This document shows, piece by piece, positions 35,778 to 38,700 of a stretch of DNA of 64,000 nucleotides. The notes below the pieces were generated by a model that was not told the origin of the DNA, searched no databases, and saw nothing but the letters and a program-made list of their open reading frames with translations. The DNA is from Ostreococcus lucimarinus (lineage: Eukaryota). Each line of letters opens with the position of its first letter. Position 1 is the stretch's first letter. The position numbers were made by a program, and so were the translations under genes. The DNA lies in assembly GCA_000092065.1 (NCBI GenBank), contig CP000595.1; one strand, written 5' to 3'.

Positions 35778-38700
35778 ATGGCGACGGCGACGGCGCCGAC
35801 GCCGACGCGAAGCGCGCGAACGCCGAGCGCGTGGACGCGGACGGCGATGATCGCGATCGCGCTCTTCGCGGCGCTCGGCGGCGCGACGCCGGGCCGCGCG
35901 GCGTTCACGGCGGACGTGTGTTACGGCGCGTCGTGGGAGCCGACGGCGACGGCGACGAAGGCGTCCATAGGGAAAACCGTCAAACCGGTCACCGCGGTGC
36001 CGAAAGAGCACCCGCTGTTCGTGGACGCGTTCGCGAAGGCGTGCTTGGACGTGGGGAACGCGGCGGGGAACACGTCGGCGGCGACGACGGTGCGATTGCC
36101 GAAGCGGACGAACGCGGGGAACGAGACCTATTGGTCGAACGCGGCGGGGGCGTGCGCGACGTCGCCGACGGTGAGCGCGGGACAGTTGTTTTATAATCGA
36201 GCGGAGATGGGATCGACGTTGTCGTACGCGGATTCGAACACGGGACTGGAGAAGGATAAGACGGTTAGGATTGTGTTCGTGAACGACGACGGAAAGGGCG
36301 CGCACGTGGTGGTGTTGGCGGGCGCGAGGGCGGCGACGGGGTCGAGCTCTCCCGAGGTTGGGCTGATGATGGAGGGTGGTTCGTTGAAAAACTCGGCGAA
36401 CGTGGTGATAGAGGAACCTCGGGGATTGACGAACGTGGTGACGAGTGGAAGCGGATGCGACCCGTCGGTTTCGTCGGCGAGCGATTGCTACGAGTTGGAC
36501 ACGGATTTGGGTCTTGGCAAGTTTCGCTGGGGATCGGGATCGGATCAACGCGGTATCGTCATCGGCCACGTCGCCGATGTGAACTCAGAGTTTGCGATGA
36601 AGTTCACGCTGCTCGAACGCATCGATTCGGTGGAGATTGGGTCGTTTGACGACGCGACGTTTGCGATGTCGTGGGAGACGATTCCGACGGCGAGCGCGTT
36701 GAGAGGTTTCAAGATTCGCAGCGCAACTTGCACGAATCACTGCGCTTTGCACGCAACGTGCGCGTCGTGCGCCACGGATGACGCGTGCGGGTACTGCTCG
36801 GCGACGAAGACGTGCACGAAGATTGATGGTTCGTGCTCGAGCGGCTTCGACGTCATCGGCGAGTGCCTCGATACGTGCGGCGCGGCGTTGACGTGCGGCG
36901 AGTGCGCCGATCAGAGCGGATGTGGGTGGTGCCACACCACTGGTCGGTGTACCGCGGCGCAGCTCGACGGTAGTGCTCCGCAAGATGGTAATTGCTCCGC
37001 GTTTAGCGTGGGATCGAGCGCACAGTGCGCCACGTGTCCGGGCGCCGTCACCTCAACTATGTTGCCCGCTTACGTAGATGTCGACCGCGTCAGCGCGTTT
37101 TGCAACGGCAGGGGGACGTGTGATAACATCACGCGCACGTGTACGTGCTCGAGCGGTTACGGTGGAGACGGATGCGAGAAGATGTGCCCCGGCGGCGCGA
37201 GCAATCCGTGCTCGAGAAACGGTTTATGCGACTCGGCGTCGGGAAGTTGCTTCTGTAATCCTGGCTACGTCGGCTCGCGATGTAACGCCGCCACGATAGT
37301 CGGGACGTGCGAATGTGGCTCAGCGCACACATACTTGAAGTCGGACGGCACGCAGCAGCGCGTGTGCTCTGGTCGTCTCGATTCGAGCGGCTCGTGCGTG
37401 TGCCTCGAGGGATGGTCGGGTGTAAACTGCACCGTCGCGTGCGCCGGCACCTTGACCGTCGGCACCGAGGTGTGTGGTGGACACGGTACGTGCAATGTTG
37501 GAACCGGTCAGTGCGATTGTGAGCCGTGTTATTCGCGGGACGCCACTTCAGGGCTTTGCGTGCAAGACACTTGCTCAACGTGCGACTCTAGCAATGGAGT
37601 GTGTTCGTGCGTGAGCGGAAGTATGCAATGCGCCTGTCGGGGCGCCTTCGATGGGTACGCGTGCGATCAGTGCAAGTGTGGCGACCACGGTCGTTGCAAC
37701 GCACTCTCGGGCGAGTGCGAGTGCGACGCAGGATACGCTGGCGAGCTCTGTGAGCGACTCATTGAGCCGCAGCCGACGTGCGCCAACGGCGGCACCTGGA
37801 ACGCGGCCCTCAAGCGATGCGAGTGCGCGGGCGGATACACGGGCACTCTTTGCGATGCAGCGTGCACGACGAACCCGTGTAATGATCTTTGCAGTGGGCA
37901 TGGTACCGTGAACGTCGATGGGACCTCGTGTACGTGTTTCACTGGATTCTCGGGGAGCACTTGCAACACTTGCGCCACAGGCTACGGCCCGTATCCCAAG
38001 TGCGGCGCGACGCTTGCAAACGGAGAATGTACAGATAATATCGTAGCTTACACTGGGACCACAAACGTGACGATTTCGGGCAAACAGTGCCAGTCGTGGT
38101 CGTCCCAATCGCCGTTCGCGCACACGTACGCGTCGTCTTCGGGATCGACGAGCAATGAGTGTCGTAATCCGTCGTCTGACGCGCACCCGTGGTGCTACGT
38201 CGATCACACCGCCATCACCGGGTCGTACACCCGAGGCGAACCTCGATGGGAGTTTTGTTCAGTACCGACGTGTAAGTCGGCATACGTCAACCCACAGAAG
38301 ATTTGTGGCGTTTTCGGTGGTGAAACAGTCGTGACGTTTGACAAGGACTCCACCTCGGGAGCGCTCAACGCTGTCAGCCAACAGGCGCTGACGACGACGA
38401 ACGACGCAGTGGACAAGACGAACTGTGGCGCAATGAATCTGACTAATAACGATATCACCTTGCACGCGAACGCCGCGGCGCATGGAGACTTTGTCGCTCG
38501 GTTCGCCGAAGACTCCGGCACGGGTTATGCGAGACGCATCATCACGCACATCGGTCTCAAAGCATCCGTTTCGCCGGCGCACGATAGCGTCGAAGTGCAC
38601 GCCGATGGCACCGTGAAAGTCAACAGTGTTACCAAAACGAATGATCTGCCATACTCCGACGGCTCCACTGGTGTTTTGTGCGTGTCTGACTGGATGCCCG

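Follow-up and report, generated by a model that had tools for sequence, protein, structure and literature searches.

Kringles are autonomous protein- or ligand-binding modules, most familiar from the blood-clotting proteins of animals and typically of approximately 78-80 residues, in which three disulfides join the first and sixth, second and fourth, and third and fifth of six cysteines. In the mosaic proteases tPA, uPA, factor XII and HGFA a kringle comes directly after an EGF module, in a secreted or extracellular setting, while ROR1/ROR2 and MuSK are single-pass receptor tyrosine kinases that carry a single kringle beside the membrane. Here, we consider a kringle encoded in a 64,000-nucleotide stretch of DNA from the green alga Ostreococcus lucimarinus (assembly GCA_000092065.1, contig CP000595.1), referred to below as the window. 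An earlier reading of the bare letters, the original prediction, had placed a canonical kringle at 38037-38273. It had also described such domains as sporadic outside Metazoa, which fits the literature: they have been reported in apicomplexans, where they were interpreted as animal-derived (PMC3417536), and in ichthyosporeans (PMC4448552). We consider it very probable that the segment is a true kringle and that it serves as an extracellular, disulfide-bonded binding module of a giant cell-surface membrane protein (~7,630-7,684 residues). Below, we describe the evidence for its identity, conservation and location, its possible origins, and the protein in which it is found.

The kringle and its host gene

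The domain and the open reading frame that contains it are as follows.

38028..38273, plus strand: kringle from Cys1 to Cys6, residues 781-862 of the giant open reading frame, recognized by PF00051, by kringle matches in the PDB and by six invariant Cys
35688..58742, plus strand: uninterrupted open reading frame (7,684 codons and a stop) for a giant mosaic multi-pass membrane protein, taken from the list of open reading frames and its translation

The in-frame translation of 38037-38273 on the plus strand is NIVAYTGTTNVTISGKQCQSWSSQSPFAHTYASSSGSTSNECRNPSSDAHPWCYVDHTAITGSYTRGEPRWEFCSVPTC, and the strings that had been put forward as diagnostic (YTG, CQSW, NECRNP, PWCY and WEFCSVPTC) are all found in frame +1 of that interval; the opposite strand is interrupted there by a stop codon. 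The six cysteines that had been claimed do all exist, but only five of the six lie within 38037-38273. The first is encoded by TGT at 38028-38030, three codons 5' of the start originally given ('GEC TDN|IVAYTG'), and the span has therefore been corrected to 38028-38273. The assignment to the kringle family is borne out by the PF00051 profile, which scores a 79-residue segment at 56.5 bits (E = 3.5e-15, gathering cutoff 34.3) and pieces of up to 500 residues containing the kringle at 51-56 bits. A phmmer search against all PDB sequences matched 85 kringle-containing chains, with per-domain E-values down to ~1e-10; these include plasminogen, HGF, angiostatin, apolipoprotein(a), prothrombin, ROR1/ROR2 and tPA, the kringles of plasminogen and HGF being the best matches of solved structure. 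A kringle hidden Markov model (HMM) built from non-algal domains only gives 62-65 bits, the full protein included. Judged by these scores, the match to the kringle family is far above chance. Scanning of all frames gave no second kringle in the window.

The cysteines (C781, C801, C825, C836, C857 and C862) fall on the Cys columns of the family and are invariant across five related lineages. The signature motifs NECRNP, PWCY and RWEFC are all present, with NYCGNP as a variant in one lineage and LWEFC in two. The description of the domain as 'canonical' thus holds for its motifs and cysteines but not for its loops. The C4-C5 spacing is 20 residues here and 20-22 across the lineages, whereas it is 11 in 369 of 476 parsed kringles and at least 17 in only ~5 of the 476 (the parsable part of 676 domains detected in the 150 top-ranking representatives from a database search described below). 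An insertion of 11-13 columns, amounting to nine extra residues in O. lucimarinus, separates 'PWCY' from 'RWEFC'. The C2-C3 loop, in turn, is shorter than in the kringles of plasminogen. The overall length is 82 residues, and up to 86 in the other lineages. The long C4-C5 loop is a loop-length variant and gives no ground to exclude the domain from the family.

A metagenome scan found 30 loci, 21 of which sort into five tiers of identity.

Loci L001-L008: 99-100% identity
Loci L009-L013 and L015: 72-73% identity
Locus L014: 66% identity
Loci L016-L019: 69% identity
Loci L020-L021: 66-67% identity

All 21 have the six cysteines and the insertion, inside open frames of >1,000-2,200 residues. Over the N-terminal 2,200 residues the lineages can be aligned from one end to the other, with 58-67% identity. 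The divergently transcribed neighbouring gene is syntenic, with 70-72% identity, and the head-to-head pairing is kept at five loci. Nei-Gojobori comparison with the window sequence gives, for the kringle, a nonsynonymous rate (dN) of 0.19-0.23 and a synonymous rate (dS) from ~0.9 to saturation; dN is 0.30-0.46 in the downstream flank and 0.27-0.36 over the whole alignment. Residues D839, G845, Y847 and R849 of the insertion are invariant. By these rates and alignments, purifying selection maintains the kringle together with its insertion at a syntenic locus in at least five related lineages, and the same comparison puts it already in the ancestor that the sampled Ostreococcus-like lineages share.

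That the protein is green-algal, as had been stated, is established by its surroundings. XP_001421626.1 (acetolactate synthase) and XP_001421625.1 of O. lucimarinus CCE9901 both have 100% identity to the window along their entire length, and the other genes of the window are ordinary nuclear green-algal ones (Vps41, a retinoblastoma homologue, OGG1, glucan-water dikinase and an AMP-binding/ankyrin protein). The kringle-bearing gene is intron-free, a single open frame of 23 kb. Public metagenome gene calls for it have lengths of 7,627-7,629 residues. The true start is likely to be M54 at 35847, because a gene-call length of 7,629 residues fits this methionine. Two features of the product bear on where the kringle is located.

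35847..35903, plus strand: signal-peptide-like N-terminus, M54-A72, 'MIAIALFAALGGATPGRAA', read by eye from the sequence
55911..57344, plus strand: multi-pass membrane block, residues 6742-7219, in which hydropathy shows at least five strongly hydrophobic helices

Conservation across the lineages starts right behind the signal-peptide-like stretch, at 'TADVCYG'. From residue ~75 to residue 6741 a hydropathy scan shows no hydrophobic segment, and the kringle is thus within a stretch of ~6,670 residues on one side of the membrane. This side would be extracellular, because the protein has a signal-peptide-like start and disulfide-rich modules; the kringle would then face the cell exterior within an adhesion or sensing ectodomain.

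One functional suggestion is that the algal kringle binds lysine and other omega-amino acids as the plasminogen kringles do. Plasminogen K2 and K4 are the best PDB matches, and Trp62, Trp72 and an aromatic residue at position 64 (Tyr64) are retained as the aromatic groove, along with Asp57 in four of the five lineages and Arg71 in three. However, the set of residues expected of a lysine-binding kringle (Asp55/Asp57, Arg71 and Lys/Arg35 around Trp62/Phe64/Trp72) is incomplete. Ser replaces Asp55 in each of the five lineages and Leu replaces Arg71 in L016 and L020; L020 has also lost Asp57. The region of Lys35 is deleted or altered, and the large insertion adjoins the pocket-forming strand. We regard lysine binding as improbable. 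A classical lysine pocket would not be used by the algal kringle, because its anionic Asp55 is Ser everywhere and its cationic Arg71 is Leu in two lineages. Instead, the domain may bind a protein or a glycan with a lineage-specific, non-lysine specificity, and D839, G845, Y847 and R849 of the insertion probably add a lineage-specific surface.

A number of points weigh against the view of the segment as a true, extracellular and selected binding module. A single-sequence AlphaFold2 model of the kringle, computed with no alignment as input, has a predicted local distance difference test score (pLDDT) of 36.4, too low for the model to be of use. Invariant positions make up 0.48 of the kringle and 0.41 overall, which corresponds to the 66th percentile of sliding windows; this is a modest excess over the mean of the N-terminal 2,200 residues and does not mark the kringle as a key site. 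The conservation holds for the Ostreococcus-like genomes sampled. The topology is taken from a simple hydropathy scan and a signal peptide read by eye, and the suggestion of a protein or glycan ligand draws on knowledge of the kringle family only.

Domain databases may already list a few kringle entries from Viridiplantae. In the full-text papers searched, no description of a kringle is tied to Ostreococcus, Micromonas, Viridiplantae or phytoplankton, and the top-ranked literature on algal giant viruses makes no mention of the word 'kringle'. The domain is also missing from existing annotation. For a 984-residue public fragment that contains it (P0046), the precomputed Pfam annotation is EGF_Teneurin only. 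For the gene calls of 7,627-7,629 residues (L042-L047) it consists of a faint Big_9 and sometimes a weak Ephrin_rec_like, and omits the kringle, the EGF array and Ion_trans. In Pfam hmmscan the 56-bit kringle is lost from queries of 700 residues or more. The HMMER bias filter was considered as the cause and is not asserted, as no such loss occurred with our own kringle HMM. The domain is a new, or at least so far undescribed, green-algal member of a known family.

Relatives and possible origins of the kringle

An exhaustive search of representatives clustered at 50% identity gave 2,872 proteins at E <= 1e-3, mostly multi-kringle animal proteins, none of them more than 49% identical. The best-scoring are proteins from hedgehog, sea urchin, tunicate, amphioxus, mussel and fish. 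It should be noted that this library returned no protein with the algal kringle, even though the underlying collection holds both fragments and full-length products. A local phmmer would score the kringle-bearing algal proteins of the collection at 115-211 bits, so a filter artefact does not explain their absence, which may point to the choice of representatives or a length limit. The search is thus unable to reveal other green-algal kringles. A word-indexed homologue search with the 98-residue kringle gave no candidates; with the kringle plus its flank it led to two metagenome fragments, and with the five-lineage alignment it gave two distant proteins among the matches listed and missed the known fragments.

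Amongst the kringles of the 150 best representatives, the nearest single domains lie on a flat plateau of 40-47.5% identity, its members belonging to plasminogen- or apo(a)-like proteins of fish, amphioxus and tunicates. Also among the closest domain-level matches is a protein of the diatom Seminavis robusta with seven kringles, automatically named 'Apolipoprotein(a)' (P0053, CAB9514790.1). In a bootstrapped neighbour-joining tree the algal kringles form one clade (99%), with no supported sister among metazoan, diatom or viral kringles.

The viral kringles come from two sources. Seven phycodnavirus-like IMG/VR contigs (L031-L037, G+C content 0.42-0.44) encode a 126-residue membrane-anchored protein with a single kringle (Pfam 76.8 bits), from which the final Cys is missing and in which YRG is followed by an additional Cys. 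The flanks were scanned on L037; there the gene is at 2824-3204 on the plus strand and its neighbours encode a PBCV-type P8 minor capsid protein and TBP. The giant-virus metagenome-assembled genome GVMAG-M-3300021958-32 (L038/L039, G+C 0.30) has two adjacent kringle genes, at 93-2225 and 2434-3210, both on the plus strand, for proteins of 710 residues (TSP1 and kringle) and 258 residues (a transmembrane segment and kringle). None of these viral kringles has the insertion, and their identity to the algal one is 29-39%. Two further metagenomic loci carry kringles in long open frames: Ga0170475_113108289 (L023, G+C 0.52) has an intron-free frame of at least 2,741 residues with ~30 tandem kringles, and Ga0307398_10001106 (L022, G+C 0.44) a frame of 1,685 residues with a single one.

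The protein surrounding the kringle also has relatives, one of which is encoded by the neighbouring gene.

25891..35631, minus strand: divergent paralogue-like gene, 3,246 residues, with EGF_Teneurin, Big_9/Cadherin_4, Ephrin_rec_like and transmembrane regions by Pfam tiles

This neighbour is 24% identical to the stalk and transmembrane region of the giant protein over 355 residues; Pfam tiles give it neither a kringle nor a voltage sensor. DZR/LIM-like Cys-rich matches are found close to its C-terminus. P0222, a distant metagenomic homologue, combines the N-terminal domain with PSI-like Cys motifs, EGFs, numerous Cys-rich repeats of the stalk type and transmembrane helices, and lacks a kringle. 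The kringle looks like an addition to a pre-existing PSI-EGF-stalk-transmembrane framework, because the paralogous neighbour and P0222 appear to share that framework without it.

The original prediction had offered two alternatives, that the kringle fold is older than usually assumed or that the module entered by transfer or shuffling. A recent entry is excluded from these; between the two, the data favour neither: the algal clade has no supported sister group on the neighbour-joining phylogeny and the identity plateau is flat. An ancient lateral acquisition, for example from giant algal viruses or another protist, followed by shuffling into the PSI-EGF-stalk-transmembrane protein of an Ostreococcus ancestor, is a serious possibility that still falls short of probable. 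It is in keeping with the kringles on phycodnavirus-like contigs, with the two in the giant-virus genome, with the seven-kringle protein of the diatom, and with the kringle-free framework of the paralogue and P0222, which suggests insertion. However, the viral kringles, at 29-39% identity and without the insertion, do not group with the algal clade, and a domain of 80 residues has too little signal to polarize any transfer.

Alternatively, the kringle could be an ancient eukaryotic module that was inherited vertically and lost in most lineages, an explanation we find possible although somewhat doubtful. Kringles occur in Metazoa, in ichthyosporeans (PMC4448552), in apicomplexans (PMC3417536), in a diatom, in a green alga and on the protist-like contigs L022 and L023, and the algal clade, on a long branch of its own, does not fall within a metazoan subfamily. 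The cost is that so patchy a distribution needs many losses; no other kringle of Viridiplantae was found, by a representative search that could not show green-algal ones, and those of apicomplexans have been interpreted as animal-derived (PMC3417536). Finally, a recent arrival from an animal, or contamination of the assembly, is so remote that it can be set aside: kringles are overwhelmingly metazoan and the best-scoring representatives are animal proteins, but the 23-kb reading frame is uninterrupted in a window matching CCE9901 proteins at 100%, no outside domain exceeds 47.5% identity or is favoured as a sister, and both ideas are ruled out because the same gene, with its kringle and insertion, is kept at a syntenic locus in at least five lineages at saturated dS.

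Whichever of the two ancient origins applies, the documented range of kringles now includes a green alga, in which the module is old, selected and equipped with a lineage-specific insertion. The kringles on phycodnavirus-like contigs provide one possible vehicle for lateral movement.

Architecture of the giant protein and its voltage sensor

The original prediction overlooked the host of the kringle, a membrane protein of 7,684 residues in which a voltage-sensor domain and several further 'animal-type' modules accompany it. The architecture of this host is more unusual than the kringle itself. Pfam scans of the protein were run on 400-residue tiles and on short pieces, and the following features were found in addition to those given above.

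36726..37043, plus strand: PSI (plexin repeat)-type Cys-rich region, residues ~347-452 (PF01437, 26.6 bits against a cutoff of 23.1, two stretches, in a 121-residue piece)
37095..38012, plus strand: teneurin-like EGF array of at least five repeats, residues ~470-775 (PF23106 EGF_Teneurin up to 66.4 bits; PF07974, PF25024)
44406..44510, plus strand: somatomedin-B-like module, residues 2907-2941 (PF01033, 23.5 bits against a cutoff of 23.1, in a short piece; PDB 2cqw, the SMB domain of SUSD2, E = 7e-4)
53556..54599, plus strand: cadherin-like/bacterial-Ig-like domains, residues ~5957-6304 (PF17803 Cadherin_4, 38.3 bits; PF17963 Big_9, 28.9-38.2 bits)
55329..55532, plus strand: ephrin-receptor-like/TNFR-like Cys-rich stalk, residues ~6548-6615 (PF07699, 52.4 bits; PF23091, 32.3 bits)
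57486..57863, plus strand: voltage-sensor domain S1-S4, residues 7267-7392 (PF00520 Ion_trans, 52.9 bits; CaV2.3 repeats I and III)

The kringle does lie right behind an EGF-like array, as in animal mosaic proteins: EGF_Teneurin and EGF_2 matches occupy residues ~470-775, and the array stops a few residues short of the kringle. The PSI and somatomedin-B-like modules show up only when short pieces are scanned. With the exception of the somatomedin-B-like module, the ~5,000 residues that follow the kringle have no family match in Pfam, and a PDB sequence search of this 5,000-residue middle gave essentially no matches. A Notch/LNR-like 'CWDGGDC' motif at residues ~3984-4009 reaches 14.1 bits against a cutoff of 21.2 and is not claimed. 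Self-BLAST found no internal repeats in the protein. The membrane block at residues 6742-7219 matches no Pfam family and essentially nothing in the PDB.

Behind this block, the Ion_trans match (residues 7267-7389) spans positions 1-112 only of a profile of 241. Repeats I and III of CaV2.3 are matched at E = 1e-29, with the pre-S1 segment included. S4 has basic residues three apart (R7367, R7370, K7373, R7376 and K7379), and the charge-transfer centre, with F7315, E7318 and K7322 in S2 and D7344 in S3, aligns with that of CaV2.3. Residues 7267-7392 thus have both the S4 charges and the S2/S3 centre of an S1-S4 voltage sensor. A complete channel unit is not present: there is no S5-S6 pore, and the hydropathy scan gives no hydrophobic segment beyond residue 7392. 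A pore on a downstream exon was considered and rejected, as the next open reading frame is the AMP-binding/ankyrin gene. The C-terminal tail behind the sensor is soluble, ~290 residues long and without a family match.

It is tempting to see in the host an undescribed class of giant surface receptor, in which an 'animal-type' ectodomain of ~6,670 residues and a family-less membrane block are joined to a functional, pore-less CaV-type sensor; we put this forward as a speculative and rather unlikely reading. If it were true, extracellular binding would be coupled to membrane potential in a wall-less picoalga, and the kringle would have been added as a ligand-binding module specific to the lineage. 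More generally, a giant adhesion-type protein with a voltage sensor is a candidate for studies of surface recognition (mating, virus attachment or cell-cell contact) in a naked picoeukaryote. The combination of kringle, PSI, SMB, EGF and cadherin-like modules in one green-algal protein is a data point for the debate over whether such 'animal' modules are pre-animal or laterally mobile. Domain censuses that draw on precomputed annotations, which here pass over the EGF array and voltage sensor as well as the kringle, may under-count 'animal-type' modules in giant protist proteins.

Comparison with described systems

At its C-terminal end the algal protein recalls Hv1, Ci-VSP/TPTE and SLC9C1, which likewise have S1-S4 with regular S4 charges and no S5-S6. 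SLC9C1 provides the precedent that a voltage-sensor domain can gate a membrane protein that is not a channel (PMC6052114). Unlike in these proteins, no recognizable effector domain follows the algal sensor, which is nearest to CaV repeats I and III and is fused to a giant adhesion-type region. By analogy only, the combination of a huge mosaic adhesion-type ectodomain with a multi-pass membrane region is also that of polycystin-1/PKD-REJ, adhesion GPCRs and teneurins. In contrast to these, the algal Pfam tiles give no match to GPS/GAIN, REJ, PLAT or 7TM, and the membrane part ends in a pore-less S1-S4 of the Ion_trans type.

The ROR1/ROR2 and MuSK receptors share with the algal protein a single kringle in the ectodomain of a membrane receptor (ROR1/ROR2 in the PDB, E = 5e-10 to 3e-8). 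Whereas theirs are receptor kinases with the kringle close to the bilayer, the algal kringle precedes the first transmembrane helix by ~5,900 residues and there is no cytoplasmic kinase. The order of EGF followed by kringle in an extracellular context is that of tPA, uPA, factor XII and HGFA. Unlike these, the algal protein is a membrane protein of 7,684 residues with neither a fibronectin nor a serine-protease module, and its gene is without a phase-1 exon-shuffling signature, because it has no introns.

With regard to the domain itself, the closest described relatives are the kringles of plasminogen (K2 and K4), HGF and apo(a) (KIV). The algal kringle differs from them in the C4-C5 loop of 20-22 rather than 11 residues, in the short C2-C3 loop and in the replacement of Asp55 by Ser, and its host differs in being a green-algal protein without a protease domain. 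It agrees with them in the six Cys and in Y-x-G, CQxW, N-x-CRNP, PWC[YF] and RWE[YF]C, with a score well over threshold and ~40-47% identity to the best individual domains.

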